A stretch of DNA of 64,000 nucleotides, from assembly GCA_028865345.1 (NCBI GenBank), contig JAGWKL010000002.1:665-64664 (forward strand). Direction: 5' to 3'. Within the stretch, counting starts at the first letter, position 1; every line of letters begins with the position of its first letter. The stretch is from Candidatus Omnitrophota bacterium. Lineage in GTDB: Bacteria > Omnitrophota > Gorgyraeia > Zapsychrales > Fredricksoniimonadaceae. Shown in pieces: positions 2,544 to 43,973 of the stretch. The position numbers and the translations under genes are program-made. The notes under the pieces were generated by a model that worked only from the letters and a program-made list of their open reading frames with translations, ran no database searches and had not been told where the DNA came from.

Positions 2544-2544
2544 C

Positions 2545-2904: not shown

Positions 2905-2926
2905 AATATAAGTTTATCCTAAAACC

Positions 2927-5719: not shown

Positions 5720-5739
5720 ACCCCTCTAAAATAATATTT

Positions 5740-25341: not shown

Positions 25342-26744
25342 TCAGCCAGGGCTTTTTGAAGAGCCTCTTCAAAAAGCATGAGACTTAAATCAATTTCTTC
25401 TTCGGTAATATAAAGAGATGGGGCGATCGTAAAGACGTTCTTATAATAGCCGCCCACATCGAGCACCAGCCCGCGCTTCTTACCGCCGGCCGTCAACTCA
25501 CCTTTTAAACCGATGTTGACTATTTTATCCGTCAATTCCTGATTGGGTGTAAATCCGTCCTTTTGACAGATCTCCATACGTAGGGCGAGACCTAATCCTC
25601 CCACCTCGCCGATATGAGGATATTTTTTCTGAAGGGCCTGCAGTTTTTTCAGGAAATAGGCCCCCTTTTGGGGGACTGTGACATCAAAATTCGATTCCTC
25701 GATAAGGTCCATCACCGCCAGGCCGGCGGCCGTCCCTAACGGGTTTGAAGAAAATGTCGAATGGGTCATGCCCGGCCCAAAAATTTCCGGATTGATTAGC
25801 TCTTCCTTGGCCCATATCCCTGAAAGCGGGTTAAGGCCGTTGGTCAGGGCTTTGCCAAAAATAATGATATCCGGCACCACATCAAAATGCTCGATGGACC
25901 ATAACTTGCCCGTGCGATAGAACCCCATTTGAATTTCATCAGCAACAAATAATATATTATGTTTGTCCAGGGTCTTTTTTAATTCTTTAAAATAATTCTG
26001 TGGAGGGGCGATATAGCCCCCTGTCCCCTGTACCGGCTCGACAAAAAAAGCCCCGTATTCACAGTTATTATTCTTAGTATTGATGACGGAATAGTATTCA
26101 GACTCAAACATTTTCTGGAATGGCTTTAAACAGGACAGATCGCAGCAGTCTTTCTTATCATGGACCGCCGTACAGCGGAAACGATAAGGATAAGGGACAA
26201 AATGGGCCCGGTCGCCAAAATGCCCGTAATGCTCACGGTAACGGTAGCTGGAGGTTATGGCCGTTGCCCCGAAGGTGCGCCCGTGATAACTGCCCATAAA
26301 AGCGAACACGGGTATTTTGCCCGTATAATTGCGAACGACCTTTAGGGCGTCCTCTACGGCCTGCGCCCCCCCGACGTTAAAATGCACGCGCCCCTTGACA
26401 CCGAACTTCTTTTCGATGTCCTGGGAAATCTTGGTGGCCAGCATGATCTTTTCCTCATGCAGATACTGGCAGGCCAACTGGGGCAAGGTATCGATCTGCT
26501 TCTTAAGAGCATCATTAAGGCGTTTGTTCTTATAGCCGAAATTAGCGGCGGAATACCACATTTGAAGGTCCATGTATTCCGTTCCCCGGGCATCATACAA
26601 ACGCATACCTTGGGCATCGCAAAAAATATTCGGATGTTGGGCGCGATGAACGGTATCTCCCCATGAGCAGTATTTGGACTCCAAGGCACGCAACTCTTCC
26701 TCACTCATCGGCCCTGCTTTTTGTTCAACGGTTCTTCCGGCCAC
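25338..26744 (-). CDS. Class III PLP-dependent aminotransferase.
   Basis: Class III aminotransferase signatures are present (FVADEIQMGFYRTGKLWSIEHFDVVPDIIIFGKALTNG, with the Schiff-base Lys in FGKAL). There is an unusual Cys-rich insert (KKDCCDLSC). Confidence 0.8.
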   Translation of the reverse strand: MAGRTVEQKAGPMSEEELRALESKYCSWGDTVHRAQHPNIFCDAQGMRLYDARGTEYMDLQMWYSAANFGYKNKRLNDALKKQIDTLPQLACQYLHEEKIMLATKISQDIEKKFGVKGRVHFNVGGAQAVEDALKVVRNYTGKIPVFAFMGSYHGRTFGATAITSSYRYREHYGHFGDRAHFVPYPYRFRCTAVHDKKDCCDLSCLKPFQKMFESEYYSVINTKNNNCEYGAFFVEPVQGTGGYIAPPQNYFKELKKTLDKHNILFVADEIQMGFYRTGKLWSIEHFDVVPDIIIFGKALTNGLNPLSGIWAKEELINPEIFGPGMTHSTFSSNPLGTAAGLAVMDLIEESNFDVTVPQKGAYFLKKLQALQKKYPHIGEVGGLGLALRMEICQKDGFTPNQELTDKIVNIGLKGELTAGGKKRGLVLDVGGYYKNVFTIAPSLYITEEEIDLSLMLFEEALQKALAD

Positions 26745-27453
26745 TGGTCAATACCTCCTTAAAATAATGATGGACATCACTTAAATCCTTATAAGCAATA
26801 ACAGGCAGCCCTTCTTTGTTCATGAAATCCAATAAGGTGCCCTTGGCAAACACCACGTCGGACACGCGCGCCGGGCAAAAATCCGACCGGCCGTCACCCA
26901 CGTAAACAATCAGCTTATTTTCCGTCTTGTCCTTGGTCAAATGGATCTTCTTGCAATGGGCGCAGTTCAGGCAAAAAGGATTGTCGTAAGGAAAGGACGG
27001 AATAATACGGTCGCGATAGAAACGCAAGGAATTGGCGTAGACCTTCAGGTCCTTGATCCCGTGATAAGCCAGGATCCATTCGACGATATAGGTAAAATTA
27101 TCGCTCAGAATGACAGGCTTGACGCCTTCCCGGACAAGCAGGGTCAGAAACTGATGGAAATGCGGGTCAAGTTCAACCTTCCTGAGGAACTTATGCAAGG
27201 CATTTTTGGAAAGCCGCACATTTTTTAACTGCCCTGTCAGGCATTCCTTGGTGCTTATTTTCTCGTCTTCCCACGACTTTTCCAGGGCAGCCCACCGGTC
27301 ATTGATCGAAAAGCGCTGGATGACATCATCCAACACGTCCGAGGTGGTCATAGTATTGTCGAAATCAAAAAAAACCCGGCAGTTCGACAAAACAATGTGC
27401 GACTTAAACTGCGACGCTGATTCCAATTGATTGAGACGGTTGACAAATGGCAT
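26725..27453 (-). CDS. HAD-superfamily phosphatase (MtnX/PSP-like subfamily).
   Basis: HAD motif I FDFDNTMT is present. I moved the start to an internal Met (MPFVNRL) so the gene does not overlap the hydrolase upstream. There is a Cys cluster CLNCAHC. Confidence 0.55.
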   Translation of the reverse strand: MPFVNRLNQLESASQFKSHIVLSNCRVFFDFDNTMTTSDVLDDVIQRFSINDRWAALEKSWEDEKISTKECLTGQLKNVRLSKNALHKFLRKVELDPHFHQFLTLLVREGVKPVILSDNFTYIVEWILAYHGIKDLKVYANSLRFYRDRIIPSFPYDNPFCLNCAHCKKIHLTKDKTENKLIVYVGDGRSDFCPARVSDVVFAKGTLLDFMNKEGLPVIAYKDLSDVHHYFKEVLTSGRKNR

Positions 27454-27457
27454 AGGT

Positions 27458-28345
27458 TTAGGCGGGGACCGGTTCTCCGGCAAAAAACCGTTGCATATGC
27501 AGGGCCACCGAATTGCGCTCCTGGTCAGCGGTGATAATATGATAGGAATTATATAAAAGCACAAGTTCTTTACGGTCGGATTTGACCCTGCTGTAAATAT
27601 ACTGGGAATTACGCACCGAGCTCATATCGTCATGCTTGGCCTGGATCAGTTGAACGGGCACGGATATCCCTTGAAGGCGGGCGCTTAAATGTTTAACCAG
27701 CTTTTCCAATTGGTACAATAAGGTCAATGGAAAGAAAGGATAGCCGTATTGATGCACTTGTTCCATATTATCAAGGTCAGCCTTAATATAAAATTCATGG
27801 ATACGGCGGCGCACGGCCTTATTCTTGATACCGTAAGGCGGCTCTTCCTTATAATAAAAGAAATATTTCAATGGGGTCTTATAGGCCAAAGGCAGCAGAA
27901 AGCTATACCAAGGCGTGTTCCACCCATCGTAGAAAAGGGTGGGCGAAAGACAACTGACGCCGGCGATTTCAGTTTTAAATTCATCCGCCAAAAGCAGGGC
28001 CAGCAAAGCGCCCATGGAAAGGCCTCCGGCATAGACATGCTTATATTGCCCCCGGATATTAAGATAAGATTGGCGCACCGTCTGATAAAAATCCTGCCAT
28101 TTGCTCATTTGCAGGATGTGGATCGGCGCTCCATGATTGGCCAGGCGCGGGCAATAAACGGCATAGCCCTGGCGGTTTAAAAAATTGGCCAGGAACCTCA
28201 TTTCATGGGGAGTGCCTGTCATGCCGTGGATCAGGATGATGGCATTACCGTTAGAACCGGGCAATTCAAAACCATTGTCGGGCAAATGCGGTTTTTCAGC
28301 AGGCTTGAAGAAACCTCTTAAATTGACAGAAAATCTAACGGCCAT
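27458..28345 (-). CDS. Alpha/beta-hydrolase fold esterase, lipase or thioesterase.
   Basis: It has an HG oxyanion motif (ILIHGMTG) and a nucleophile elbow GLSMG. Confidence 0.7.
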   Translation of the reverse strand: MAVRFSVNLRGFFKPAEKPHLPDNGFELPGSNGNAIILIHGMTGTPHEMRFLANFLNRQGYAVYCPRLANHGAPIHILQMSKWQDFYQTVRQSYLNIRGQYKHVYAGGLSMGALLALLLADEFKTEIAGVSCLSPTLFYDGWNTPWYSFLLPLAYKTPLKYFFYYKEEPPYGIKNKAVRRRIHEFYIKADLDNMEQVHQYGYPFFPLTLLYQLEKLVKHLSARLQGISVPVQLIQAKHDDMSSVRNSQYIYSRVKSDRKELVLLYNSYHIITADQERNSVALHMQRFFAGEPVPA

Positions 28346-28347
28346 TT

Positions 28348-28596
28348 CTATTTAATCCCTTTTTGAGAACTTATGTAATCCACGATATTCTTGACGGTCT
28401 TGGCTTCGTAAAGGGCCGCGTCCGGAATTTTCAATTCAAACTTCTCTTCCAATTCAAAAGCGATCTCCACCGACCCGAATGAGTCGATCCCCAGATCTTC
28501 CACCAGGCGCGAATCCAAATTGATTTTCGCCGCTTCCATGGTCAACTGCTTGGCCAAAATGTCCTTAACGGTCCCCTCAACTTCAGCGTACGTCAT
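28348..28596 (-). CDS. Dedicated acyl carrier protein.
   Basis: The true start is an internal ATG (MTYAEVEG) with a GGAG ribosome-binding site, 5 nt after the KAS stop. The phosphopantetheine motif DLGIDSFGSVE is present. The longer ORF on the track is an artefactual 5' extension. Confidence 0.75.
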   Translation of the reverse strand: MTYAEVEGTVKDILAKQLTMEAAKINLDSRLVEDLGIDSFGSVEIAFELEEKFELKIPDAALYEAKTVKNIVDYISSQKGIK

Positions 28597-28600
28597 GAGA

Positions 28601-29848
28601 TTAATCTCCGTTATAATCCGAAAAAACGACACAGGCATTGCAATTGCCGAACCCGAAAGAATTGGACAATACCGTCTTGAGATGCGCACAACGCCCTTCA
28701 TTAGGGACATAGTCGAGATCGCATTGCGGGTCCCTGTCCTTATAATTGATCGTCGGCGGAATGAACCTGTTTTTAATGGCCAATGCGCAAACCACCGCTT
28801 CAATGCCTCCTGCAGCCCCAAGGCTATGGCCGATCATGGATTTCGTCGAAGAAATCGGGACTTTATACGCTTTGGGACCGAACACATTCTTGATGGCCAT
28901 GGTTTCCGCACGGTCATTGGCCACGGTCGAGGTGGCATGGGCATTGATGTAATCAACCTGCCCGGCATCCCTCCCCGCATCTTTTAAGGCATCGGCCATG
29001 ACCCGCGCCGCATCTGCGCCGCTTAAATCCGGCATCACCATGTGACGGCCTCCGGAATTACTGGCATACCCGGCAACTTCCGCATATATAGGGGCATTTC
29101 TCCTGCGGGCATGTTCCAATTCCTCCATGATGACAAGCCCCCCGCCTTCGCTTAGCACAAAACCGTCGCGTTTCAAGTCAAAGGGGCGTGAGGCTTCCTC
29201 GGGAACGCTGTTTTTGGACATCACCCGCAAATAATAATACGCCTCAAAATTCAAAGGCGACAAGGTCGCTTCCACACCGCCGGTCACGCACAAGTCCATA
29301 TCGCCCCACTGGATCTTGCGAAAGGCCTCACCGATAGCATGATTGGCCGAAGCGCAAGCCGTGGAAATCACCATATTAGGGCCCAAGCATCCGTGCTGGA
29401 TGGCAATATGGCTGGACACCGCATTAGGTGAAATCCTTGGCACAGCCGTCGGATGACAGCGGGGGTTCGATTTTTCAAAGTGGGCGACCAATTGCTCTTC
29501 ATGGAACATCATGCCGCCCAAGCCGGAACCGATGACCACCCCGATGCGGTTTTTGTCCTCGGTCTCTAAGTCAAGACGACTGTCTTCGACGGCCATCTTG
29601 GTACAGGCCAGCCCAAAATGGACAAACCTGTCCACTTTTTTGACCACTTCCGAAGGCATATACCGGCAAGGGTCAAAACCCCTCACCTCTCCGGCTATTT
29701 TTGTATCGAAGTTGTCGGTATTAAAACCGCTGACTTTGACAACCCCTGACCGGCCCTGCATATTGGCCTGCCAAAAATCATCCTTGCCTATACCATTGCA
29801 GGCTACCACGCCCAAACCGGTGACAACCACACGCCGTTTCTTCGTCAT
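28601..29848 (-). CDS. 3-oxoacyl-ACP synthase II-like (KAS, FabF family).
   Basis: The thiolase-fold KAS signature is present: VVVTGLGVV, the active-site Cys in ISTACASANHAIGEA, the HATST and GHSLGAAG His motifs, and the C-terminal NSFGFGG-like end. Confidence 0.85.
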   Translation of the reverse strand: MTKKRRVVVTGLGVVACNGIGKDDFWQANMQGRSGVVKVSGFNTDNFDTKIAGEVRGFDPCRYMPSEVVKKVDRFVHFGLACTKMAVEDSRLDLETEDKNRIGVVIGSGLGGMMFHEEQLVAHFEKSNPRCHPTAVPRISPNAVSSHIAIQHGCLGPNMVISTACASANHAIGEAFRKIQWGDMDLCVTGGVEATLSPLNFEAYYYLRVMSKNSVPEEASRPFDLKRDGFVLSEGGGLVIMEELEHARRRNAPIYAEVAGYASNSGGRHMVMPDLSGADAARVMADALKDAGRDAGQVDYINAHATSTVANDRAETMAIKNVFGPKAYKVPISSTKSMIGHSLGAAGGIEAVVCALAIKNRFIPPTINYKDRDPQCDLDYVPNEGRCAHLKTVLSNSFGFGNCNACVVFSDYNGD

Positions 29849-30055: not shown

Positions 30056-30487
30056 TTAGAACTTAAAACTGGCACCCTCTGGCGTGAAACTGGGACCGTC
30101 ATCGACATCGGAGTCTCCATTGCCGTCCGGGTTCAGGGAGGCAAGGATATTTTCTCTATTGATCCATTTCTTCATTTGCTCCCGGCTCAAAACCAGGCTT
30201 AATCTTTTATTTTCTTCTTCTTTCAACTTTTGTATGGCGCTTTTGACAGCCCCATGCTCCAGCAAACCGCCTCCCGCCACCTGCTGAAGGACCGCTTCGC
30301 GCTTGACCAGATAGTCTTGGACAATGGGGTACACGGCTTGAACCTGGGCCTTTGTCAATTGCAACACAGTCTTCATTTTGTTGACATTATAATCGACAGC
30401 AGACTGCATTTCTTTGGCTTGGGCCGATGCCCAGGGGCCCAATACCAAAAAAAAGGCCAAAACACCTGCCCCATATTTGCGGACCAT
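30056..30487 (-). CDS. Periplasmic CpxP/Spy-like protein (LTxxQ-type motif).
   Basis: A signal peptide precedes a helical mature domain with LQLTKAQVQAV. Confidence 0.4.
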   Translation of the reverse strand: MVRKYGAGVLAFFLVLGPWASAQAKEMQSAVDYNVNKMKTVLQLTKAQVQAVYPIVQDYLVKREAVLQQVAGGGLLEHGAVKSAIQKLKEEENKRLSLVLSREQMKKWINRENILASLNPDGNGDSDVDDGPSFTPEGASFKF

Positions 30488-30603: not shown

Positions 30604-33600
30604 TTAGCGATCTCCCTGCGTCATAGAGCCCCCCAAAAATGCCCCTAAATCCTTCATCGGCTGAATGTCGATGATCACCGGCACGAAACCTGGGGCATTT
30701 TGCAGACGGGTGAGCATGGCAGGATCCATATGGAAATTAATGCCTTGGCCCGCATGTTGTGTCTGCAAATCCATGTGGGCGGCGGTCAGATCAATACCTC
30801 CGGTGGGAGTCATGGATTGATCGGCGTGCGCCATGGCAATTTTATCCATAAGTTGCCGGGCCATGAGTATCGCTCTGTGTTGATCAATAAAATTTGGGCT
30901 TGTCACGATAGAAACCGCTTTAGCCTTAACGGCCATTTGAGCTATTTTGTCCAGCATAGTTTCGACTTCAGCATTGGAATAGCCGTTAAATACGTCGAGA
31001 TCGACATCCACCAGATCATAAGGCTTTTCCTGCGGATCAATGGATGAGCCTGGTTGAGCGGCGTATCGCACCGGCCCTTCGTCGATCATTTGCACGGCAC
31101 GCAAAGTGTCCAGATTATAAAGCCAATGCCAATAAGGCAGGCCGCTTTTATCTGAAGCTATGAAACCTTCCTTAACAAAGGGAGCTATAAAACCTTCTAT
31201 ACCAAGGACATTTTGGGCATAACGATCAGCCTCGATGAGCTTGTCCGTGTTTTCCCCAAGAAACCCGCCGGAGCTATTATAACGGCGGGTAATCCGTGCA
31301 TCAGGGTGTGCATCAATATGCAATAAACTTAACCCCTTTTGAAGCATCCCTTGCCTCAACATCAACCACCAAAAGGTAAAGACATTGCTGTGATCGTCGG
31401 AAATAAAAACCATGGGGCCTTTTTTAAGATCGATCAAAACTTTTTTCGTTAGTCCGTAGATGGTCCCGTCCTTCGCCGTTGCGCCCTTGATCAGTTGTCC
31501 TCCCATCTTATCAGACCAGCCATCAACAATGTCCCAATCCGTGATGCCGGAGGCATTTATAGAAGAAAAACCCGCCTCTGCGAAACTCTTGAGAGACACC
31601 TTCATGGCACTGTCCTTTTTAATTTTAGGCTTTGGGGCCAATAAAACCAGGGCCTTTCCGTTGGAGAAATCACGGTTTGCGTTTTGGACGATGGTGTAAT
31701 TAAACCGGCCTGGGGCGGAATTTAATTCAGCAAGAGTGTCTACAACTTGAGCCGCTTTCCCCAAAGAAGTATATTGAACAAAGGAAGTGTCCATCATCAA
31801 TGCAGAAATAAACCCCCGGTTAAAATTTTCTAAATCAAAATGCTCAGCAGCCTCTTCTTTTGTCAAAAGGTCCCCCACATCAATCACAACCATCCTGTCG
31901 GTCCCCCCGGCCGATCCAACATCTACCAAAAAACCATTAGGCTTCATGACAAAACCCCGGGCCAACAATTTCTTATATAACTTAAAATAGCCGTTTAACA
32001 GAGTGTCTATTTTTTGGTGTAAAACATCAGGATCATCCTGATAAATTCTTCTTAAACTCCTTATCCGATCCAGCAACGGGACAACTTCTTGCTGTACGAC
32101 GGCATGGGGGACCCTGATGATGTGTCCGCCCACATTGACGTCCAGGTCCTTAAAAACGAGATACCCGGCCGCCAAGGGGCCCAAACGCTCCTGATATTCA
32201 TCATATTTTGACCAAACCTGAGGATCAGTGACACCCTTGACGACAATATCACGCCCTTCGACATTCCCTTTATAGACCACTGATTCCACTCCTCCGGCAA
32301 ATTTAATCAACGGGTGGTCTCTCAATTGGGAACGCAACACATTCTTTAACGCCTCCAGGCCGGTATCCTGCGCTTTTGAAGCCATGGCATTATCTTTGAT
32401 CTCCAGTTCGATGCCATGGCCCTTATCTTGGGGAACTAAATATTCATACTCCTCTGCAAAGCCGCCGAACCGCGTATCATCAGCGACTATCGCCGTGATC
32501 TTTCCGCCGCTCTTTTTGATGCCGAAAAAGAAATTGTGACTGCCGGCGAGGCCCACATTGACCTCATGGGTTTGTATATGGCGCGCTTGGAAGGCCTCCT
32601 TGACATTGGGCAATATTTGCGAGTAGCTGTCGATCAAATTCACCATTTCGGGCCTGGGCCCCAATCTTCCCAGGAAAAGCCCGACCTGGTTGTCCAGATC
32701 GTCGAGGTCTTCATTAAAGAAATGGGCGATAGACATTTTGCCCTCGCGGTCAATCACGACCGCCACCACGCAATCCCCCATTTCGACGGCATCTGTCCAA
32801 AACACGCCGTTAGTGGCGCCGATGACCGCCGTACGCTCGGATATTTCATGGCCGACAAATTCCTTACCCGTCGACAAATTCATCAAATTGATGTCCGGCT
32901 CAGGCGGGACATGAGATTTCAGATAGGAGTACTCGATCCCCAACGCGCCGGCAAAGGCCAGCGAAACGGCTATGACTTTAAGGGATTTGGGGACAGTCAT
33001 GGCCGCATTGGGCATTTGGTCCGTATACCGTATGACTTGATTTGCCTTCATGGCCAAATCAAACTTCACCCCTCCGGAAAAATATTTTCTCGGGACCATT
33101 TGCCGTGTCAGGGGGTCCCGTTTTTCCTCGATATAATTATAGACGCCTTTTTTAAACGCCTGCAGGTAACGCCGGTAAATTGCCTCCACCCGTAAGGGGC
33201 CGTTGAAGCCCACACCTGCCACTTTATTTTTACCGGCATAAGCTTGTGCCAGGATACTCTTTTTTATTTTCATCTTATACCAGGTAGCCAGGATCAAAGA
33301 ATTATAAACCTGACGCAAGACGGCAAAATTTTCATCTTCATTGACCTCCCTGGTCAATTCAGGGATGACGATTTCACGGATGACCTGACTCCCCAATTGA
33401 TTGGTGCCTCGGGCAACGGCCGCAGCACCCGACCCTTCATGCTTTTCAAGTGACAAATAATCCTGGTCCAGCATGACCTTTAGCCTGCTGCTTATCACAT
33501 AGGCCGTTTGTGCCCCGGTATTTTCATAGACCACGGCTTTTTGGGGAAGTATCCAGACTTTGTTAAACGTGTTCACTGCAATATCGGTCGTCCCGTATTT

Positions 33601-34101
33601 TTTCCGGGCCTCTTCATAAACACGTTTCCAAAACTTTTTTCCGGTTTGTCCCTCGGGATAAATCAGGCTGGCGGTGACCTGTTTAAGCAGGTAATCTTCA
33701 GCCAATAAATCACGGCCCATCCGTGTTGAACCAAAAGAAGGCGGGATGATCCTGTCTTTTTCATAAGGGCTTAAATTGACCCACAGGTCCTCTTCCGGGA
33801 CGGTCAATGATGCCAGGAAGTATTGGACCAGCCTGGCAGCTTCCCGTTTCAGCCCCTCCCTTCCTTCAGGATACTGGTCCCCCTGATCCAAAATAAAGTC
33901 GAATCTCAGAGGATCATCAGGATAAACTTTTATTCCTTTGAGGATGGGAGGCTCAAGAGGAGGACTTAAATGGACCATGACGCCGGGGGCAGGCAGACGC
34001 CATTCATCCGCCCGGGCCATGGGGATCGGCCCCATGACAAGCGTTACAAAAAAAGACAAAATGGTCAATACGCATATAGGGGACTTTGGGGTTTGGTTCA
34101 T
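30604..34101 (-). CDS. Large secreted multidomain protein (about 1165 aa) with a C-terminal ureohydrolase (arginase/deacetylase)-like domain.
   Basis: I set the start at MNQTPK, which carries a signal peptide. The C-terminal region has arginase-family metal-binding motifs in order: SDDHS, HIDAHPD and DVDLDVF. The first roughly 800 aa are unrecognised. Confidence 0.6.
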   Translation of the reverse strand: MNQTPKSPICVLTILSFFVTLVMGPIPMARADEWRLPAPGVMVHLSPPLEPPILKGIKVYPDDPLRFDFILDQGDQYPEGREGLKREAARLVQYFLASLTVPEEDLWVNLSPYEKDRIIPPSFGSTRMGRDLLAEDYLLKQVTASLIYPEGQTGKKFWKRVYEEARKKYGTTDIAVNTFNKVWILPQKAVVYENTGAQTAYVISSRLKVMLDQDYLSLEKHEGSGAAAVARGTNQLGSQVIREIVIPELTREVNEDENFAVLRQVYNSLILATWYKMKIKKSILAQAYAGKNKVAGVGFNGPLRVEAIYRRYLQAFKKGVYNYIEEKRDPLTRQMVPRKYFSGGVKFDLAMKANQVIRYTDQMPNAAMTVPKSLKVIAVSLAFAGALGIEYSYLKSHVPPEPDINLMNLSTGKEFVGHEISERTAVIGATNGVFWTDAVEMGDCVVAVVIDREGKMSIAHFFNEDLDDLDNQVGLFLGRLGPRPEMVNLIDSYSQILPNVKEAFQARHIQTHEVNVGLAGSHNFFFGIKKSGGKITAIVADDTRFGGFAEEYEYLVPQDKGHGIELEIKDNAMASKAQDTGLEALKNVLRSQLRDHPLIKFAGGVESVVYKGNVEGRDIVVKGVTDPQVWSKYDEYQERLGPLAAGYLVFKDLDVNVGGHIIRVPHAVVQQEVVPLLDRIRSLRRIYQDDPDVLHQKIDTLLNGYFKLYKKLLARGFVMKPNGFLVDVGSAGGTDRMVVIDVGDLLTKEEAAEHFDLENFNRGFISALMMDTSFVQYTSLGKAAQVVDTLAELNSAPGRFNYTIVQNANRDFSNGKALVLLAPKPKIKKDSAMKVSLKSFAEAGFSSINASGITDWDIVDGWSDKMGGQLIKGATAKDGTIYGLTKKVLIDLKKGPMVFISDDHSNVFTFWWLMLRQGMLQKGLSLLHIDAHPDARITRRYNSSGGFLGENTDKLIEADRYAQNVLGIEGFIAPFVKEGFIASDKSGLPYWHWLYNLDTLRAVQMIDEGPVRYAAQPGSSIDPQEKPYDLVDVDLDVFNGYSNAEVETMLDKIAQMAVKAKAVSIVTSPNFIDQHRAILMARQLMDKIAMAHADQSMTPTGGIDLTAAHMDLQTQHAGQGINFHMDPAMLTRLQNAPGFVPVIIDIQPMKDLGAFLGGSMTQGDR

Positions 34102-34175
34102 CTCTTTTAAAGTATGTAATATATTTAGATAAAAAACAAGGGTCAAAGAACAATAAAAATGGTAATATAACAGCC

Positions 34176-35276
34176 ATGCGTTTAAAAAAGGAAGAACTGT
34201 TTTTTGTAACTTCTTTTGAGCAAGCCTCCATCCTGCGTAAATACGCCATCCTCTTTCTGGTCTCCTCTGTTATTCCCATGGTCCTTTTATATTACGTCTA
34301 TTTTAAAAGCACCCGGATCGGGCACATCGCCATGCTGCTGATGGTAACGGGTGTTTTGGTGGGTTACTTTTCCATCCGAACCTTACTGACCAGGGCCATC
34401 AGTATCGCCGAGGAAAACCGCAAAGCGATCGAGCCTTTTTTAAAACCTGAAATCTTCAAAGAACTCAGCAAGGAAAAAAATGAACTGATGGCTTTAAACC
34501 ACTTGTTCTCCGCCATGACCAAACAGCTGGAAGCCAACATCAAAGAATTAAGATCCAAGAACGAGGAGCTTAAAACCCTGGACCGGCTCAAAGATGATTT
34601 TGTCAACAACGTTTCCCATGAATTGCGCCTGCCGTTGACCGTCATCCAGGAAAGCATACGCCAGATCGGCGAAGGGATGTTCGGCAAAGTCAATGACTTG
34701 CAGATGAAATACATCCATATGTCATTAAGAAATATCGACAGGCTCAGGGCGCTCATCGACAATATGCTGGACATTGCCAAGATTGAGAAAGGCAAGCTGG
34801 AACTCCTGAAAAAAAACGTTGATGTCAGCCAGATCATCAAAGAGGTCATCTCCGATTTTACGTTCAAAATTGAAAAAAAAGGTTTGGCCCTGAAAGCCGC
34901 CCTGCCTGACCAACCGCTTTGGGCAACGGTCGATAAAGATAAGATCACCCAGGTCTTGATCAACCTGGTCGGCAACGCCTGTAAATTCACCGAAAAAGGC
35001 CGCATCATCGTGTCCGCCTGCGACAGAGGGGATTTGATTGAATGCAGCGTCGAGGATTCCGGAATAGGCATTCCCCCGCAGGAGATGCCCCATCTATTCT
35101 CTAAATTCCATCAGATCGGCCGGCTGAAAAACCAGCCGGAGAAAGGGACAGGTTTGGGGCTGGTCATTTCCAAACATATCATCGAATTGCACAACGGGCA
35201 GATCCATGCGCAAAACCTGGAAGGAACGGGCACGAAATTCACCTTTACATTGCCTAAATCCCCCGGCGGACTTTAA
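34176..35276 (+). CDS. Sensor histidine kinase (two TM helices, HisKA, HATPase_c).
   Basis: I set the start at MRLKKEE to avoid overlap with the upstream gene. The H-box NVSHELRLPL and the G-boxes DSGIGIP and GTGLGLVISKHIIELHNG are present. Confidence 0.8.
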   Translation: MRLKKEELFFVTSFEQASILRKYAILFLVSSVIPMVLLYYVYFKSTRIGHIAMLLMVTGVLVGYFSIRTLLTRAISIAEENRKAIEPFLKPEIFKELSKEKNELMALNHLFSAMTKQLEANIKELRSKNEELKTLDRLKDDFVNNVSHELRLPLTVIQESIRQIGEGMFGKVNDLQMKYIHMSLRNIDRLRALIDNMLDIAKIEKGKLELLKKNVDVSQIIKEVISDFTFKIEKKGLALKAALPDQPLWATVDKDKITQVLINLVGNACKFTEKGRIIVSACDRGDLIECSVEDSGIGIPPQEMPHLFSKFHQIGRLKNQPEKGTGLGLVISKHIIELHNGQIHAQNLEGTGTKFTFTLPKSPGGL

Positions 35277-35293: not shown

Positions 35294-35674
35294 ATGAAGA
35301 AAATATTAATCATTGATGACGACGTGGACATCATTGATCTGGTCACCAACAGGCTGGAGAGAAACAACTATGAGGTCATATTTTCCAATGACGGCGATAA
35401 TGGGGTCAAAAAAGCCCTTGAGCAAAAACCTGACCTGATCATCATTGATGTCATGATGCCGCGCCTGCCGGGACCGGAAGCGGTCAAGCTCCTGAAATCA
35501 TATGAAGGGACCCAAAACATACCTATTCTTTTCTTTACCGCCATGAACTCATACCTGCCGCCTAATACCGAATTTGATGACATCAATGTGGGCGGCCAGT
35601 TTTTCCCCTCTATCCCCAAACCATTTGATCCCAACAGACTGTTGTCCTGTGTCCGGCTGCTTTTGGGAGAATGA
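35294..35674 (+). CDS. Stand-alone CheY-like response regulator receiver.
   Basis: Starts KILIIDDD and has a phospho-acceptor Asp in LIIIDVMMP. It lies 17 nt downstream of the kinase. Confidence 0.85.
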   Translation: MKKILIIDDDVDIIDLVTNRLERNNYEVIFSNDGDNGVKKALEQKPDLIIIDVMMPRLPGPEAVKLLKSYEGTQNIPILFFTAMNSYLPPNTEFDDINVGGQFFPSIPKPFDPNRLLSCVRLLLGE

Positions 35675-35915: not shown

Positions 35916-38321
35916 CTATATGCGCGCTTTGGCTGAAATACGCATTTCATAAAAGGAGCGGATCAAAAAGAACAGGGCAACGCCAAAAAAGACAACGGCA
36001 AGAAAAATGTCAAGCCCCCGGCCCAAACCAATGGCAATTTCAATGGCCAGCAACCCAAACAAGGTCGTAAATTTGATGATCGGATTGATGGCCACCGATG
36101 ATGTGTCTTTAAAAGGATCCCCCACCGTGTCCCCGACCACCGTTGCCGCATGTAATTCTGTGCCTTTTTCCTGATACGTCACTTCTACCAACTTTTTAGC
36201 ATTGTCCCACGCCCCGCCGGCGTTGGCCATGAAAATGGCTTGAAAAAGGCCGAAAACGGCAATGGAGATCAGATAGCCTATGAAGAAATACGGCTCCAGA
36301 CAGGCGAAAGCAAGGGTCATAAAAAGCACGGCCACGAAAATATTGATCATCCCCTTTTGGGCGAACATCGTACAAATTTCTACGACCCTTGTACTGTCCT
36401 GTTTGGAGGATCTGTCTGTTCCTTCCAACTTGATATGTTCCTTGATATACTGCACAGTATGATAAGCCCCTGTGGTCACCGCCTGAATGGAGGCGCCGGA
36501 AAACCAGAAGATCATGCCCCCGCCGCTTAAAAGCCCGAGCAACAAAGGCGGATAAAGCACCGACATGTTCTCCATATGCACTGTGAGGCCGCGGGTTAAT
36601 ATCATAATGATAGAAAAAATCATGGTGGTGGCGCCAACCACGGCTGTCCCGATCAACACCGGCTTTGAAGTGGCCTTAAAGGTGTTCCCCGCCCCGTCAT
36701 TGGCTTCCAGATGATGTTTGGCAAGCTCGAAATTCGGCGTAAAACCGCTGGTCTTTGCGATTTCTTCCTTAATATTCGGAATGGCCTCGACAAGAGAGAG
36801 TTCATAAATCGACTGCGCGTTGTCGGAAACAGGCCCATAAGAATCAACGGCAATGGTGACTGCCCCCATCCCTAAAAATCCGAACGCCACCAGGCCAAAG
36901 GCAAACACCGCGGGTGCTATCATGATGGCATCCAACCCCATTAAACTGACAAAATAGCCTAAAGCCATCAGGACCACGATCACCAGCCCCATCCAATACG
37001 CGCTGTAATTCCCCGCCACCAGCCCGGAAAGGATATTCAGCGAGGTGCCACCCTTTTTGGAGCATTCGTAAATGTTCTTCACAAAATCCGAATTCATGGA
37101 TGTAAAGACCTTGATCCCCTCCGGAATGACGGCACCGGCCAAGGTGCCGCAGGTGATGATGGTGGCCAGCTTCCACCAAAACGTACCGTCCCCCAAATTC
37201 GGGATAAGGACATAGGAGGCCACATAGGTCAGGATGATCGAAAAAATCGAGGTGATCCATACCAGGGAGGTCAAGGGATCTTCAAAGTTCATTTCTTTAG
37301 CATTGGCATAGCGCCTTTTGGCAAAAAAATGGTTGATTTCATAAGAAAAACCGCTGGCGATCAGCATGATCAAACGCATGGAAAAGATCCAAACCAGGAG
37401 CTCTGCCTGGACCTGCGGATTTTTGACGGCCAAGAGAATAAAAGCGATGAGCGCCACTCCGGTCACCCCGTAGGTCTCGAAACCGTCCGCCGTGGGCCCA
37501 ACCGAGTCCCCCGCATTGTCCCCCACGCAATCGGCGATGACCCCCGGATTGCGCGCGTCGTCCTCCTTGATATTAAAAACGATCTTCATGAGATCAGACC
37601 CGATGTCCGCAATTTTTGTAAAAATGCCGCCTGCGATCCTCAGAACGGAGGCGCCCAACGATTCACCGATGGCAAAACCGATAAAACATGGGCCGGCATA
37701 GTTGGGATTAATAAAAAGAAGAATGCATAACATGACAAAAAGTTCAATGCTGATAAGGAGCATGCCGATGCTCATGCCCGCCTGCAAAGGAATGGAATAG
37801 ACCGGAAATGGTTTGCCTTCCAGGCTCGCAAAGGCGCAACGCGAATTCGCCAGGGTGTTGATCCTCATGCCAAACCAGGCGACACTATAGCTTCCGGCGA
37901 TACCGATGAGACTGCAGACTAAAATAAGAGCGACCCTGCCGGCGTCAAAATGGCGCAGCCAGCCGAAATAGGCCACCATGACACCCCCGATCAGGACCTC
38001 CAAAACCAGCAGGAACTTCCCCTGGGCAATAAGATATGCTTTACAGGTCGAATAAATGAGCTCGGAGATCTCTTTCATGCTTTGATGCACCGGCATCTTT
38101 TTCAATTGCCCGAACTGATAGATACCAAAAAATGCCCCGAAAGCGCAGACAATAAGACCTAACATCAATGCGGTGTGGCCGTTTAAGTGAAAAATAAGAG
38201 GAACCGAGGATAAATCAGGCACTATCAGGTCTGATTCGCCCGCCCAAGCTCCCGGAAGACCCAGAAAAAATGCCATGAACGTTAAAAGTCCAAGTCTATA
38301 AAACTTCTGACGACGGCTCAT
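35916..38321 (-). CDS. hppA: Membrane-bound H+-translocating pyrophosphatase, copy 1.
   Basis: H+-PPase signatures are present (GVIADCVGDNAGDSVGPTADGFETYGVTGVALI, DGAGNTFKATSKPV, DNAGGAWDNAKK). The GNTFKA motif has Lys rather than Ala, which suggests the K+-independent subtype. Confidence 0.9.
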   Translation of the reverse strand: MSRRQKFYRLGLLTFMAFFLGLPGAWAGESDLIVPDLSSVPLIFHLNGHTALMLGLIVCAFGAFFGIYQFGQLKKMPVHQSMKEISELIYSTCKAYLIAQGKFLLVLEVLIGGVMVAYFGWLRHFDAGRVALILVCSLIGIAGSYSVAWFGMRINTLANSRCAFASLEGKPFPVYSIPLQAGMSIGMLLISIELFVMLCILLFINPNYAGPCFIGFAIGESLGASVLRIAGGIFTKIADIGSDLMKIVFNIKEDDARNPGVIADCVGDNAGDSVGPTADGFETYGVTGVALIAFILLAVKNPQVQAELLVWIFSMRLIMLIASGFSYEINHFFAKRRYANAKEMNFEDPLTSLVWITSIFSIILTYVASYVLIPNLGDGTFWWKLATIITCGTLAGAVIPEGIKVFTSMNSDFVKNIYECSKKGGTSLNILSGLVAGNYSAYWMGLVIVVLMALGYFVSLMGLDAIMIAPAVFAFGLVAFGFLGMGAVTIAVDSYGPVSDNAQSIYELSLVEAIPNIKEEIAKTSGFTPNFELAKHHLEANDGAGNTFKATSKPVLIGTAVVGATTMIFSIIMILTRGLTVHMENMSVLYPPLLLGLLSGGGMIFWFSGASIQAVTTGAYHTVQYIKEHIKLEGTDRSSKQDSTRVVEICTMFAQKGMINIFVAVLFMTLAFACLEPYFFIGYLISIAVFGLFQAIFMANAGGAWDNAKKLVEVTYQEKGTELHAATVVGDTVGDPFKDTSSVAINPIIKFTTLFGLLAIEIAIGLGRGLDIFLAVVFFGVALFFLIRSFYEMRISAKARI

Positions 38322-38435: not shown

Positions 38436-40193
38436 TTATTGTTGAATAACACGCAGGAATTCTTTGGCGGCTTCCGCAGGGCCGTTGCGCTCCCAGCCGG
38501 AAAGCCCCAGGCGGGTGCGGAGCAATCCCACAAAAACCCCGGCCTTAAAGAAAGCGTCAAAATATTTCTTCGCCAATTGCTCATGAAGTTCCTTGTACTG
38601 GACAGGACCGAAAACATTGGCGAAATAGGAGTGGACTATCCCGCTTGAAGTGGTGGTGCCTTTGCTCATCACTGTCCCATCCCGGAAGATCTTGATGGCA
38701 GATTCGGACGTTTTCAACTTCTCAATGATGGGATGATCATCATCAATATCTTCATAATTGTTGGCATACAGGATAAAATCAACCTGGTGGCCTTTGATCA
38801 GATTATTAAAGGTGGTGACCGGCAGAATGATGCGCGCGTTGACCTGGTTGGCGTTCATGATGATGGCGCGGTCGATCTGCCCAAGGGCATAACCGGGCTG
38901 CAGGTCGTCCAGGCGCAGGAAAGCGCCGATCTCCGTCCCTCGGCCCATGACTTTTCCCTGCGCTGACAAAGCCAAGGATCCCATGTCGTCCGCAATAACG
39001 ATAATATCCTGGATGTAAAGGTCCCCCAAGGTGCGGAATGCCTCCAACGTTTCCGATTTTCCGGCCCCTGTGTCCCCCATCAATAAAACGGTAACGTCTT
39101 TATCGCCCTTAAGGATGATGCGCACCATGGCCCCGTGAAAAGGCAGGTGCCCCATTTTCATGATCTTGATGTTATGGAGCGTCAGGATCATTTTCTTCAA
39201 ATAACCGAAATAACCGAATTCGTCGCGGCCGGGGACCGCGCCGACCAAAAGACCGTTTCTTTCATCATCGAAGAAAACCGTCGGCATCTTGCTAAGACCG
39301 TCCAATACCGCGCCCGGAACCCCAAAAGCAAAAACCGCATCAGGGACGCGTTCCAAATCCTTGTCATCTGCCATTTCGAAAAGATTGCACAGCGAAAGAC
39401 CGAGTTCGAAAAACATTTTATGGAAATAAACCAGGACAATGAGCGGCCCCACCTTGGCCGGATAACACAGCCATTCATCCTTGTCGAAATCAAACAAGTC
39501 CATGGGGTTCTGCGCCACGCGTTCGAATTTTCCCGTACGCTTGTTCATCGGCGTATCCAGTATCAAAGGCGGATACAGAAGCACCTGCCGGATGATGGGC
39601 ACCCCCCGCAATTTTTCATAAACACCGGAAGGCAAATTCAATTTCCGCTGGGAAGTGATCACCCCGACTTCGGCGCCGGCAATGACCTGCCGGTAAATAC
39701 GCGGGTGTTGTTTGGTCAAATTCTCGGCAATATCGCGGTAGGTCCCCCGGATGAGGTGGCTCAACGGTTCGACCACATTATTGAAGGTGCGGTAAGGCCT
39801 TTGATCCAGGTCACGGCCTGCCGAATCACAGACGACAAAACGCTCCAGGGAGCGCCAATAGTTGTAAAGATATTCAATAAAATCATTGAGCAGGAACTTG
39901 TCTTGCAAAAGCACCTCTGATCCTGGAACTGCGCCAGGCAGAAGGTCTGCGGAATTCTTGCTCAAAAACTTGAAACTCCTGATAATGAGATCGATCTCAT
40001 CCTTATCTGCAGGCTTGTCGGCGTGGAATATATTTAAAAGAATGGAATTCTTGTGCTTGAGCTCCGCCATGCAGTCGCCCAGCACCCTCTTGAACAATTC
40101 GCTGTTAAGGACATCCTCCGTGGTGAAACAGACCTTATCATTAAAATGGATGATGACCTTGTTGCCGTGAATATCGAAATGGGAATTATTCAT
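38436..40193 (-). CDS. HprK-like P-loop kinase domain protein with a large uncharacterised N-terminal domain.
   Basis: The C-terminal region HGAMVRIILKGDKDVTVLLMGDTGAGKSETLEAF...IVIADDMG matches the HPr kinase/phosphorylase C-domain core (HG..V.GxGVLxxGxSGxGKSE ... ADD). The roughly 370 aa N-terminal domain has no recognisable motif. Confidence 0.55.
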   Translation of the reverse strand: MNNSHFDIHGNKVIIHFNDKVCFTTEDVLNSELFKRVLGDCMAELKHKNSILLNIFHADKPADKDEIDLIIRSFKFLSKNSADLLPGAVPGSEVLLQDKFLLNDFIEYLYNYWRSLERFVVCDSAGRDLDQRPYRTFNNVVEPLSHLIRGTYRDIAENLTKQHPRIYRQVIAGAEVGVITSQRKLNLPSGVYEKLRGVPIIRQVLLYPPLILDTPMNKRTGKFERVAQNPMDLFDFDKDEWLCYPAKVGPLIVLVYFHKMFFELGLSLCNLFEMADDKDLERVPDAVFAFGVPGAVLDGLSKMPTVFFDDERNGLLVGAVPGRDEFGYFGYLKKMILTLHNIKIMKMGHLPFHGAMVRIILKGDKDVTVLLMGDTGAGKSETLEAFRTLGDLYIQDIIVIADDMGSLALSAQGKVMGRGTEIGAFLRLDDLQPGYALGQIDRAIIMNANQVNARIILPVTTFNNLIKGHQVDFILYANNYEDIDDDHPIIEKLKTSESAIKIFRDGTVMSKGTTTSSGIVHSYFANVFGPVQYKELHEQLAKKYFDAFFKAGVFVGLLRTRLGLSGWERNGPAEAAKEFLRVIQQ

Positions 40194-41576: not shown

Positions 41577-43973
41577 TTAAGCTGAAATACGCATCTCGTA
41601 AAAAGACCGGACCAAAAAGAACACGGCAACTGTAAAAAAAACAGCCGCCAAAAATATATCCAGCCCCCGGCTTAACCCGATGGCGATCTCAATGGCCAGT
41701 AAGCCGAACAATGTCGTGAATTTGATGATCGGATTGATGGCCACAGATGAAGTGTCTTTAAACGGGTCCCCCACCGTGTCTCCCACCACCGTCGCCGCAT
41801 GCAATTCAGTGCCTCTCTCTTGGTATGTGACTTCCACGAGCTTCTTGGCATTGTCCCATGCTCCGCCGGCATTGGCCATGAAAATGGCCTGAAAGAACCC
41901 GAAGGCGGCAATGGAGATCAAATACCCTATAAAAAAATACGGCTCCAGGCAGGCAAAGGCGAGAGTGGTAAAAAGGACGGTCACGAAAATATTGATCATG
42001 CCTTTTTGGGCGAATACCGTGCAAATTTCCACCACCTTTTTGCTGTCCTTGGTGGAAGCCCTGCCTTCCTGGTCCAGCTTTATGTTTTCTTTGATGTATT
42101 GCACGGTGTGGTAGGCGCCGGTGGTCACCGCCTGGATGGAAGCCCCGGAAAACCAATAGATCATGCCGCCCCCGCTCAAGAGCCCAAGCAGGAATGGAGG
42201 ATAAAGTACGGATAAATTTTCCATATGGACCGTAAGGCCGCGGGTCAATATCATGATGATGGAAAAGATCATGGTGGTGGCCCCCACCACGGCCGTTCCG
42301 ATCAAAACAGGCTTGGCTGTGGCTTTAAAAGTGTTGCCTGCGCCGTCATTGGATTCCAGATGGTGCTTGGCAAGCTCAAAGTCAGGCGTAAAGCCATGGT
42401 CCCTGATGATCTCCTCTTTGATATGAGGAAGGGTCTCGATGAGAGAAAGCTCATAAATGGATTGTGCATTGTCGGAAACCGGCCCATAGGAATCAACGGC
42501 AATGGTGACCGGCCCCATGCCCAAAAATCCAAACGCCACCAGGCCAAAAGCAAACACCGCCGGTGCGATCATAATGGCATTCAGGCCAAGAGTACTGATA
42601 AAAGAAGCAACGGCCATCAGGACCACAATGACCACCCCCATCCAGTGGGCGCTGTAATTCCCCGCCACCAAGCCTGATAGGATATTAAGAGAAGCCCCTC
42701 CTTTTTTGGAGCTTTGATAAATGTTCTTCACAAAATCTGAATTCAAGGAAGTAAACACCTTGGTCCCCTCCGGTATGACCGCTCCTGCCATGGTGCCGCA
42801 GCTGATGATGGCGGCGAGTTTCCACCAGTAGGTGCCATCACCCAAAGATCGTATGAGGGCAAAAGAAGCCAGGAAAACCAGGGCGATCGATACGATGGAG
42901 GTGATCCACACCAGGGATGTCAACGGCGCTTCGAAATCCATGGTGTGAGTTTTTAAATAGCGCCTTTTGGCAAAAAAATTATTGATCTCGTAGGAAAGGC
43001 CGCTGGCGATGATCATGATGGTGCCGATGAAAAATATCCACACCAACAGCCTGGCCTGAACCAGGGGATTTTTAACAGCCAAAAGAATAAAGGAAATAAG
43101 CGCCACCCCGGTCACGCCGTAGGTCTCAAAAGCATCCGCCGTAGGACCCACCGAGTCGCCGGCATTGTCTCCCACGCAATCGGCGACCACCCCGGGATTA
43201 CGCGCGTCGTCTTCCTTGATGTTAAAAGCGATCTTCATGAGATCGGCGCCGATGTCCGCAATTTTGGTAAAGATCCCTCCGGCGACCCTCAGCACAGACG
43301 CGCCCAACGATTCACCAATGGCAAAACCGATAAAGCAAGGGCCGGAATAATCGGGGTTGATAAAAAGGATGATGCTTAACATGACGAAAAGTTCCGTGCT
43401 TATCAACAACATGCCGATGCTCATACCCGCCTGCAGGGGAATGGAATAAACGGGAAAGGGTTTGCCTGCAAGGCTTGCGAAAGCGCACCGGGCATTGGCC
43501 TTGCCGTTGATCCTCATGCCGAACCATGCCACGGCATAGCTTCCGGCGATGCCGATCAGGCTGCAGACTAAAATAAGAACGACTTTGTCGGCGTCAAAAT
43601 GCCGCAGCCATCCGAAATAGGCCACCATGACAGCACCGATCAAAACTTCCAGGGCAAGCAAAAACTTTCCCTGGGCGATGAGATAGGTTTTGCAGGTCGT
43701 ATAAATGAGCCGGGAGATATCTTCCATGCTTTTATGCACGGGCATTTTCTTCAAACGTGCGTACTGGTACATTCCGAAAAAGATGCCGAAAATGCATACC
43801 AAAAGCCCCAAGATGAGGGTCCTGCGGCCGTCCAAACCAAAAATGCCGGGTACAGCGGACAAATCCGGAACCTTCAAATCCGCCTCACCGGCCCATGCCG
43901 GCGAAACACCTGAAAAGAATGCCGCAAAAATTACAAACCAGGATTTACAGACCCCCGTCCACCGATTCTTCAT
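41577..43973 (-). CDS. hppA: Membrane-bound H+-translocating pyrophosphatase, copy 2 (paralog of 35916-38321).
   Basis: It has the same motifs as copy 1 and is collinear along its full length. Sampled aligned nucleotide stretches are about 88% identical. There is a ribosome-binding site 23 nt downstream of tRNA-Ser. Confidence 0.9.
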   Translation of the reverse strand: MKNRWTGVCKSWFVIFAAFFSGVSPAWAGEADLKVPDLSAVPGIFGLDGRRTLILGLLVCIFGIFFGMYQYARLKKMPVHKSMEDISRLIYTTCKTYLIAQGKFLLALEVLIGAVMVAYFGWLRHFDADKVVLILVCSLIGIAGSYAVAWFGMRINGKANARCAFASLAGKPFPVYSIPLQAGMSIGMLLISTELFVMLSIILFINPDYSGPCFIGFAIGESLGASVLRVAGGIFTKIADIGADLMKIAFNIKEDDARNPGVVADCVGDNAGDSVGPTADAFETYGVTGVALISFILLAVKNPLVQARLLVWIFFIGTIMIIASGLSYEINNFFAKRRYLKTHTMDFEAPLTSLVWITSIVSIALVFLASFALIRSLGDGTYWWKLAAIISCGTMAGAVIPEGTKVFTSLNSDFVKNIYQSSKKGGASLNILSGLVAGNYSAHWMGVVIVVLMAVASFISTLGLNAIMIAPAVFAFGLVAFGFLGMGPVTIAVDSYGPVSDNAQSIYELSLIETLPHIKEEIIRDHGFTPDFELAKHHLESNDGAGNTFKATAKPVLIGTAVVGATTMIFSIIMILTRGLTVHMENLSVLYPPFLLGLLSGGGMIYWFSGASIQAVTTGAYHTVQYIKENIKLDQEGRASTKDSKKVVEICTVFAQKGMINIFVTVLFTTLAFACLEPYFFIGYLISIAAFGFFQAIFMANAGGAWDNAKKLVEVTYQERGTELHAATVVGDTVGDPFKDTSSVAINPIIKFTTLFGLLAIEIAIGLSRGLDIFLAAVFFTVAVFFLVRSFYEMRISA

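Follow-up and report, generated by a model that had tools for sequence, protein, structure and literature searches.

In a 64,000-nucleotide (nt) stretch of contig JAGWKL010000002.1 from a Candidatus Omnitrophota bacterium, here called the window, a minus-strand gene at 30604..34101 encodes a protein of 1165 amino acids (aa). Judged by sequence comparison, this protein is an ordinary member of an uncatalogued, phylum-specific family, in which a conserved head and a conserved tail enclose exchangeable cargo, and in this member the cargo includes a module of the peptide-arginase type. Four features define the family: a signal peptide, the head (…WVNLSPYE…PRKYFSGG), a short junction motif (D-x-A-M) and the tail (GGIDL…GFVPVII.IQP). 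All four are present in this protein. On balance we lean slightly towards reading it as a Sec-exported head-cargo-tail mosaic whose modules are separated by junctions and whose last cargo module, module C, is peptide-arginase-like; the head and tail would then serve as a common scaffold from which the modules may be released.

Gene and domain layout

Positions refer to the window, and residues are numbered from the ATG at 34101. The minus-strand frame is open without interruption over 30604..34146 and gives 1180 aa if a TTG at 34146 is the start and 1165 aa from the in-frame ATG. The TTG adds 15 residues that are absent from homologues. The ATG places an 8-residue n-region ahead of the hydrophobic core, the same as in homologues, and it is the start consistent with them. 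A previous reading of the DNA from its letters alone (the sequence-only reading) had combined the length of the TTG form with the coordinates of the ATG form; the open reading frame (ORF) itself stands, with the shorter length. A near-identical database protein, MDE1920486.1 (UPF0489 family protein [Candidatus Omnitrophota bacterium]), is also 1165 aa long; its identity is reported as 100%, but at least one residue (K352 here) differs. No paralogue of the gene is found inside the window. The parts of the gene are as follows.

30604..34101, minus: whole gene from the ATG, 1165 aa; stop codon 30604-30606
34009..34101, minus: predicted signal peptide (MNQTPKSPICVLTILSFFVTLVMGPIPMARA / DEW), aa 1-31; hydrophobic core aa 8-27 with a Kyte-Doolittle value of 2.2, site placed by the homologue pattern
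33070..34008, minus: conserved family head (LPAPGVMVHLSP ... PRKYFSGG), aa 32-344; 60-70% identity in the family, among the 120 matches listed of more than 3,600
32998..33069, minus: linker after the head with two junction motifs, DLAM and NAAM, aa 345-368
32383..32997, minus: cargo module A, aa 369-573; an alpha/beta domain preceded by a weakly hydrophobic helix (aa 376-394), ending in DNAM
31603..32382, minus: cargo module B, aa 574-833; possibly protein-kinase-like, ending in DSAM
30811..31602, minus: cargo module C, aa 834-1097; UPF0489 / peptide-arginase-like ureohydrolase domain by PF12640, family profile and Foldseek
30607..30810, minus: conserved family tail (TPTGGIDL...NFHMDPAML..LQNAPGFVPVIIDIQPMKDLGAFLG), aa 1098-1165; found by BLAST in all 121 family sequences

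A shared head and tail around unrelated cargo

Used whole as a query, the protein matches more than 3,600 protein clusters, nearly all of them only over its N-terminal ~30%. The matched proteins are 650-2000 aa long and their Pfam content is unrelated between members. Their cargo includes receiver/CheY, GGDEF, HATPase_c, Pkinase, many methyltransferases, GNAT, HAD and metallophosphoesterase domains, as well as MutS ATPase, poly(A) polymerase, glycosyltransferase, guanylate kinase, M48 peptidase, HEAT and others, and about two thirds of the proteins carry no Pfam domain whatever. The layout, read from 28 members, is fixed: a signal peptide, a head of ~310 aa, a variable middle of one to several modules, and a tail of ~65 aa. 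The head has ~90 invariant columns in an alignment of 66 sequences, and the family consensus of the tail is GGIDLTPANMNLQTQNAGEGIKFHLDPAMLAQLQNAPGFVPVIINIQPM.DL..FLG.

The two ends travel together. The tail is detected by BLAST in each of the 121 family sequences compared. Conversely, a search of metagenome contigs with the tail only retrieves 252 relatives, and in the 80 loci read from these, 40 tail-bearing ORFs contain the head in the same ORF (737-2666 aa, median ~1400), 33 are cut by a contig end, and 11 are short or interrupted and have no head. The head is thus present in 40 of the 51 tail-bearing ORFs that do not end at a contig edge. Named sources of the family are all Omnitrophota/Omnitrophica, apart from several automatically named metagenome-assembled genomes (MAGs) with the unconfirmed label 'uncultured Planctomycetales'. 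Genomes contain several copies (at least seven in MAG OFTM38), and the window contains one.

Neither the head nor the tail has a match in Pfam-A (2025) or NCBIfam (2026), and the whole protein outside PF12640 matches no family in either library. The literature search, Omnitrophota papers included, returned no description of the head, the tail or the junction architecture, which is not proof of novelty. The sequence-only reading had described about 800 aa of this protein as unrecognisable. This is correct for the curated libraries, although the head, two of the modules and the tail are family-wide or shared with other members. For the same reason, a giant single enzyme with 800 aa of its own is not supported, as the same head, modules and tail occur with wholly different cargo. 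The AlphaFold2 model of the head has a mean predicted local distance difference test (pLDDT) score of 63.6. It contains three long beta-hairpins (aa 53-72, 182-211 and 321-342), each accompanied by helices, which would make a threefold internal repeat possible; because of these hairpins, non-significant matches to HU/IHF-type proteins recur in Foldseek searches.

Junctions between modules

Short motifs of the form [DN]x[AS]M, mostly D-x-A-M, lie at the module boundaries. Those of this protein are:

33049-33060, minus: junction DLAM, aa 348-351
32998-33009, minus: junction NAAM, aa 365-368
32383-32394, minus: junction DNAM, aa 570-573
31603-31614, minus: junction DSAM, aa 830-833
30811-30822, minus: junction-like DQSM closing module C, aa 1094-1097
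30712-30723, minus: junction-like DPAM inside the tail (FHMDPAML), aa 1126-1129; kept in nearly all members

Across 121 family proteins the motif is observed 443 times against 52 expected from shuffles, an 8.5-fold excess. A general feature of the proteome was considered and rejected: the 40 other proteins of the window contain 4 copies in 17,026 residues, against 6 in this protein, so that its density is 5.15 per 1000 aa here and 0.23 there (~22-fold). Only D, A and M are fixed, and the next residue is usually small or polar. The first junction falls 1-45 aa past the end of the head in most members. In an all-against-all comparison of cargo regions, homologous blocks start at a median of 32 aa past a junction and stop 30 aa before the next one, where random placement gives 135 and 106 aa, respectively. 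In the predicted structure, DNAM and DSAM lie in low-pLDDT, presumably flexible stretches, and DQSM lies at the end of module C's final helix, right ahead of a stretch of this kind.

An internal translation start at the junction Met was also considered. It was rejected, since Shine-Dalgarno-like sequences are not enriched upstream of the junction Met (14%, as compared with 18% at other internal Met codons) and the D and A codons show synonymous usage at background frequency. The constraint is therefore on the protein level, and because the three-residue signature persists between unrelated modules, the junction is most simply taken for a recognition site. Given the conserved D-P-A-M of the tail, the motif may be a binding or structural element besides marking linkers.

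This last point leads to a different account, in which the protein is an unprocessed surface or periplasmic multi-enzyme chain and D-x-A-M is a structural cap or linker inherited with the modules and acting in cis. The motif does coincide with module boundaries, its copy in the tail sits in an apparent folded mini-domain, which suggests a possible structural role, and no junction protease was found in the family proteins or among conserved neighbours. However, linkers seldom keep three fixed residues across unrelated modules unless these are recognised, and the motif is not intrinsic to the modules, for five long Omnitrophota proteins that bear UPF0489 show no D-x-A-M enrichment. An unprocessed chain is thus considered rather improbable, although it fares best among the competing accounts of this protein.

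Predicted export and location

A basic n-region opens the N-terminus; after a hydrophobic core of ~16 residues, a Gly-Pro break leads to A-R-A / D-E-W. At the inferred cleavage site in 109 homologues, A or V occupies position -3 in 97 and A or G occupies position -1 in 102, and the next residue is Q or D. Such a pattern is classical for signal peptidase I, and by sequence rules the family is likely to be exported by Sec. The secreted nature proposed in the sequence-only reading therefore keeps its basis in a cleavage-type site shared by homologues, with export itself as a prediction. Genes for a FadL-type outer-membrane protein and for SecDF, likewise in the window, point to a diderm cell with a Sec pathway; in such a cell, export across the inner membrane leaves the protein in the periplasm unless a further step follows.

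A membrane-tethered arrangement would reverse the location of the cargo: the N-terminal segment, the helix at aa 376-394, or both would anchor the protein in the inner membrane, with the cargo in the cytoplasm and the head as a periplasmic sensor. Signalling and metabolism in the cytoplasm do typically use domains like those of the family cargo (CheY, GGDEF, HATPase_c, kinases, S-adenosylmethionine (SAM) methyltransferases). A hydrophobic stretch opens module A in this protein and in the relatives P0003 and P0087, at least one internal transmembrane (TM)-like segment is found in 32 of 120 members, and a 2026 preprint reads many long Omnitrophota proteins as membrane-anchored with cytoplasmic domains (10.64898/2026.06.07.730766). 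On the other hand, the remaining 88 members have the same head and tail and no internal TM-like segment, so that the side of the membrane on which the tail sits would vary from member to member. The conserved G-P-x-P-x-A-x-A / [DQ] is a signal of the cleavage type and not an anchor. The helix at aa 376-394, the only other hydrophobic stretch here, is marginal (Kyte-Doolittle 1.59) and Ala/Gly-rich in homologues. Tethering is accordingly judged unlikely.

Cargo modules

Module A has relatives in the family members P0106 (63%), P0003 (46%) and P0087 (41%), and the core of its model has pLDDT values of 57-85. It gives no sequence match in Pfam or the Protein Data Bank (PDB), and a seven-sequence profile against PDB reaches a best E value of 0.7. 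A CheD-like Cys-His deamidase, guessed from a C…H pattern, was rejected since both Pfam and this profile were negative. Module B is related at 46-64% to parts of P0121, P0106, P0002 and P0061. It has no Pfam match and its profile is negative against PDB. It contains motifs that resemble those of kinases (GxxSxVYKG, VVK, KPNGFLVD, VIDVGD), and a low-confidence model gives weak Foldseek matches to kinases (E 0.1-0.3); by motif resemblance and these fold matches, module B is possibly protein-kinase-like.

Module C is far better defined. Three metal-site motifs, reported in this order by the sequence-only reading, are all located in the translation:

31387..31398, minus: DDHS, aa 902-905; H904 corresponds to OspR His12 (MnA ligand)
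31300..31320, minus: HIDAHPD, aa 928-934; D930, H932 and D934 correspond to OspR Asp39, His41 and Asp43
30988..31008, minus: DVDLDVF, aa 1032-1038; D1034 and D1036 correspond to OspR Asp165 and Asp167, register from the 8brp alignment

Their assignment to a ureohydrolase-fold, UPF0489-type binuclear metal site is borne out by PF12640, a profile of 45 sequences and Foldseek alike. PF12640 (FlmR_OhkR_N) scores 40.1 bits with the whole protein and 44.3 bits with the module, above its gathering cutoff of 27 (E 6.5e-10 to 3e-11). The direct alignment spans model positions 1-74 of 167, the N-terminal half, and the remainder is covered by the family profile. Word-indexed searches gave only 4 matches for the cargo region and 5 for module C, and exhaustive HMMER was used instead; among 1.84 billion representatives it found 186 relatives of aa 834-1097. 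The profile made from 45 of these relatives matches OspR (PDB 8brp) at E 1.1e-28. In their alignment the DxHxD columns (D930, H932, D934) and D1034 are invariant, and H904, D1032 and D1036 are kept in at least 90%. The score above the cutoff, the 186 relatives, the conserved columns and the match to OspR together indicate that the three motifs do not occur by chance.

In OspR, MnA is bound by His12 and Asp43 and MnB by His41 and Asp167, with Asp39 and Asp165 bridging (PMC10028609); the numbering of the PDB chain is that of the paper plus one. All six ligands are matched in the alignment (His12/H904, Asp39/D930, His41/H932, Asp43/D934, Asp165/D1034, Asp167/D1036), and the residue before the first His is Asp in module C and Glu11 in OspR. 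Over aa 369-1165 as a whole the AlphaFold2 model has a low mean pLDDT (53.7), but it is confident in the UPF0489 module, where 10-residue blocks average 64-93. In a Foldseek search of PDB, the modelled module C retrieves 8brp first (probability 1.0, E 3e-3), followed by arginases, metformin hydrolase and guanidinase, so that the predicted structure is closest to OspR and has the ureohydrolase fold.

Membership of the canonical arginase/agmatinase family is not supported: PF00491 scores 12.7 bits, below its gathering cutoff of 22, and instead of the canonical GGDHS / DAHxD / SxDxDxxDP the module has the UPF0489 variants DDHS, DAHPD and DVDLD. Its closest solved relative is a peptide arginase, an enzyme type that acts on arginine residues in peptides and not on free arginine (PMC10028609). 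By profile and alignment, module C is a member of UPF0489/PF12640 in the peptide-arginase branch, neither a canonical arginase nor one of the curated maturases of peptides that the ribosome makes and that are modified after translation (RiPPs). The same module also occurs in P0004 and in the fragments P0122 and P0123, there too directly ahead of the tail. Three shorter UPF0489 proteins outside the family (P0132, P0134 and P0135; 412-696 aa) have signal-peptide-like N-termini; exported UPF0489 enzymes may, on such predictions, be more widespread than the cytoplasmic RiPP examples suggest.

Genomic neighbourhood

The sequence-only reading placed the gene between a CpxP/Spy-like gene and a two-component pair and proposed an envelope-stress context. 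Both two-component genes exist, a histidine kinase (34086-35276, plus) and a receiver (35294-35674, plus), but they are transcribed divergently from this gene and the association is not conserved. Receiver genes lie within 3 kb of 4 of 72 family loci, a density of 0.024 per kb against 0.031 per kb window-wide, and any one neighbouring gene is found at 7 of 80 loci at most. The downstream gene is:

30056-30487, minus: ORF of 143 aa; N-terminus resembling a signal peptide (…VLGPWASAQA), body helical and rich in Lys, Glu and Gln

It gives no LTXXQ/CpxP match even at E up to 10, and its best Pfam hit is DUF5621 (E 0.11). With receivers at background, no conserved neighbour and CpxP/Spy not detected, the envelope-stress context is not upheld.

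These results bear on the possibility that the protein is a dedicated giant periplasmic or cell-surface ureohydrolase, with an N-terminal region specific to the enzyme and a role in envelope stress under the adjacent kinase and receiver. In its favour are a genuine signal peptide and an intact UPF0489 site, the two-component genes immediately upstream on the opposite strand, and three receiver genes ahead of P0004, the closest paralogue with UPF0489. Nevertheless, thousands of proteins without UPF0489 have the first 344 aa and the last 68 aa in common with this one, and the survey of neighbours gives this possibility no support. A dedicated enzyme is very improbable and is largely ruled out by the family architecture. 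Least credible of all is a RiPP maturase of the OspR/FlmR/OhkR type that would turn Arg into Orn in the precursor of a ribosomal natural product, for although the closest solved structure and the closest NCBIfam model are peptide arginases, that model (NF052474, FlmR/OhkR peptide arginases) gives 24.8 bits against a curated cutoff of 350, no precursor peptide or other maturase gene is found nearby (the neighbours are FabF, acyl carrier protein (ACP), S33 hydrolase, HAD phosphatase, histidine kinase, receiver and H+-translocating pyrophosphatase (H+-PPase)), and the domain is embedded in a 1165-aa mosaic with predicted export.

At the P0004 locus (L081 6130-7831), the three receiver genes ahead are single-domain, and genes for a DsbA-like thioredoxin and DoxX/MauE follow. 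Such disulfide-bond genes would fit an exported product, at this single locus. Elsewhere in the window, a lipid-type cluster at 26725-29848 (minus), directly downstream of the 143-aa ORF, encodes a FabF-like ketoacyl synthase, ACP, an S33 alpha/beta hydrolase and a HAD-type phosphatase; the ACP has an N-terminal extension of ~80 aa in the mechanical ORF. Two full-length H+-PPase paralogues of 801 and 798 aa (35916-38321 and 41577-43973, both minus) lie 3.3 kb apart and score ~595-599 bits to PF03030. Between them are an adenylate-kinase-like ORF and a 585-aa ORF (38436-40193, minus) with no Pfam match above threshold and weak P-loop/HPr-kinase-like similarity (E 0.02-0.1, aa ~350-420). A signalling cluster at 1356-5086 (minus) comprises a 7TM-GAF histidine kinase, a receiver and a GAF-HD(HD_5) protein, and its kinase gene coincides with the lowest GC content of the window (32.6% against ~50%; dip at 4001-6000).

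Comparison with known systems

The whole protein would work most like mosaic delivery proteins such as MARTX toxins, polymorphic toxins and type IX secretion system (T9SS) cargo, by analogy, although each of these lacks a counterpart here for its defining features. In MARTX toxins, conserved N- and C-terminal regions flank interchangeable effector modules with short linkers, and the module content is polymorphic. The family shares with them the conserved ends around a module mosaic, the short linkers and the variable module set. It differs in that Pfam and NCBIfam scans detect neither RTX (repeats-in-toxin) repeats nor a cysteine protease domain, in having a Sec signal peptide and not a type I C-terminal signal, in its much smaller size (0.65-2.7 kaa, thousands of aa), and in its D-x-A-M junction, at which processing is proposed by analogy.

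Polymorphic toxins (CdiA, Rhs, MafB; VENN and DPxGL pre-toxin motifs) likewise combine a conserved delivery part and a short junction with modules exchanged between paralogues. In the present family, however, the cargo is placed between head and tail and not at the C-terminus, it usually comprises several modules, these are mostly signalling and metabolic enzymes and not nucleases, deaminases or pore formers, and no conserved immunity-like gene follows in the 80 loci. T9SS cargo resembles the family in that an N-terminal Sec signal and a small conserved C-terminal domain are found on unrelated proteins. The tail matches no T9SS C-terminal domain model in Pfam or NCBIfam, the phylum is Omnitrophota and not Bacteroidota, and the conserved head of 310 aa is additional. 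OspR and other UPF0489 proteins, including human C5orf22, resemble module C in the PF12640 score above cutoff, the six Mn ligands and the best fold match, but OspR is a free-standing cytoplasmic RiPP maturase of ~300 aa, whereas the domain here is one module of a mosaic that is predicted to be exported.

Within the phylum, the giant and long proteins ('Archaeovorins') likewise have signal peptides and concatenated domains (bioRxiv 10.1101/2023.11.21.568195, 10.64898/2026.06.07.730766). Their repertoire of methyltransferase, HATPase_c, GNAT, HAD, GGDEF, receiver and HEAT domains (10.1101/2023.11.21.568195; 10.64898/2026.06.07.730766) is matched by the cargo of the head-cargo-tail family, and UPF0489 modules are also found in proteins of 2.9-7.5 kaa. 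Yet the five long UPF0489-bearing proteins have neither head nor tail, in addition to lacking the junction motif, and the fixed layout is that of the 0.65-2.7 kaa proteins; a link to 'Archaeovorin'-type proteins through head, tail or junction was therefore rejected for these five.

Proposed function

Because both ends accompany every kind of cargo, the head and tail are probably responsible for a shared step. They would together form an apparatus for export, outer-membrane crossing, surface attachment or anchoring, or delivery, and the cargo would provide the activity. Modules would come apart at the D-x-A-M linkers, for which proteolysis of the kind known from MARTX toxins and viral polyproteins is the simplest way. 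Module C might act on arginine residues of a peptide or protein outside the cytoplasm of the producer and hydrolyse their guanidino groups, giving ornithine and urea; its substrate would lie at the surface of the cell or within a host or prey cell. Since many cargo domains need ATP, GTP or SAM, action inside another cell fits better than action in the periplasm or medium. Such action is in keeping with a host-dependent or predatory lifestyle, which has been proposed for Omnitrophota, and the giant proteins pose the same cofactor puzzle (bioRxiv 10.1101/2023.11.21.568195; 10.64898/2026.06.07.730766).

Several points weigh against this exported mosaic with released modules. Export, cleavage and enzyme activity are predictions from sequence, and the delivery role of head and tail is assigned by exclusion; neither end has a recognisable fold, and the head, with a moderately confident model, gives no fold match in PDB or BFVD by Foldseek. 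No candidate protease for the junction and no transport partner was found, and D at -3 is atypical for signal peptidase I. No protease, transporter or immunity gene is conserved as a neighbour in the 80 loci. The helix at the start of module A could be a membrane anchor, and the dependence of CheY, GGDEF, kinase and SAM methyltransferase cargo on cytoplasmic cofactors, which fits injection, equally questions the predicted topology. A bolder version is possible but doubtful: a phylum-wide, hitherto undescribed delivery platform of these ultra-small bacteria, in which head and tail would carry strings of cytoplasm-type enzymes and signalling domains into host or prey cells, the strings would be cut into single effectors at D-x-A-M, and the peptide arginase would edit arginines of host proteins.

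Implications

Read conservatively, the analysis reveals a domain of ~310 aa in more than 3,600 protein clusters for which neither Pfam nor NCBIfam has a model. Its members are named after whatever cargo is detected ('UPF0489 family protein', 'GGDEF domain-containing protein', 'protein kinase'), and such annotation is misleading. With an intact peptide-arginase-type module that is predicted to be exported, Arg-to-Orn editing may also take place in settings other than RiPP biosynthesis. Should the scaffold reading be true, thousands of candidates for exported effectors of an uncultured phylum would be marked by their head and tail, and the D-x-A-M junction would be a concrete prediction for proteomics. 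A list of these effectors would then indicate what Omnitrophota cells do to their hosts, in a phylum whose lifestyle has so far been inferred mostly from genomes.

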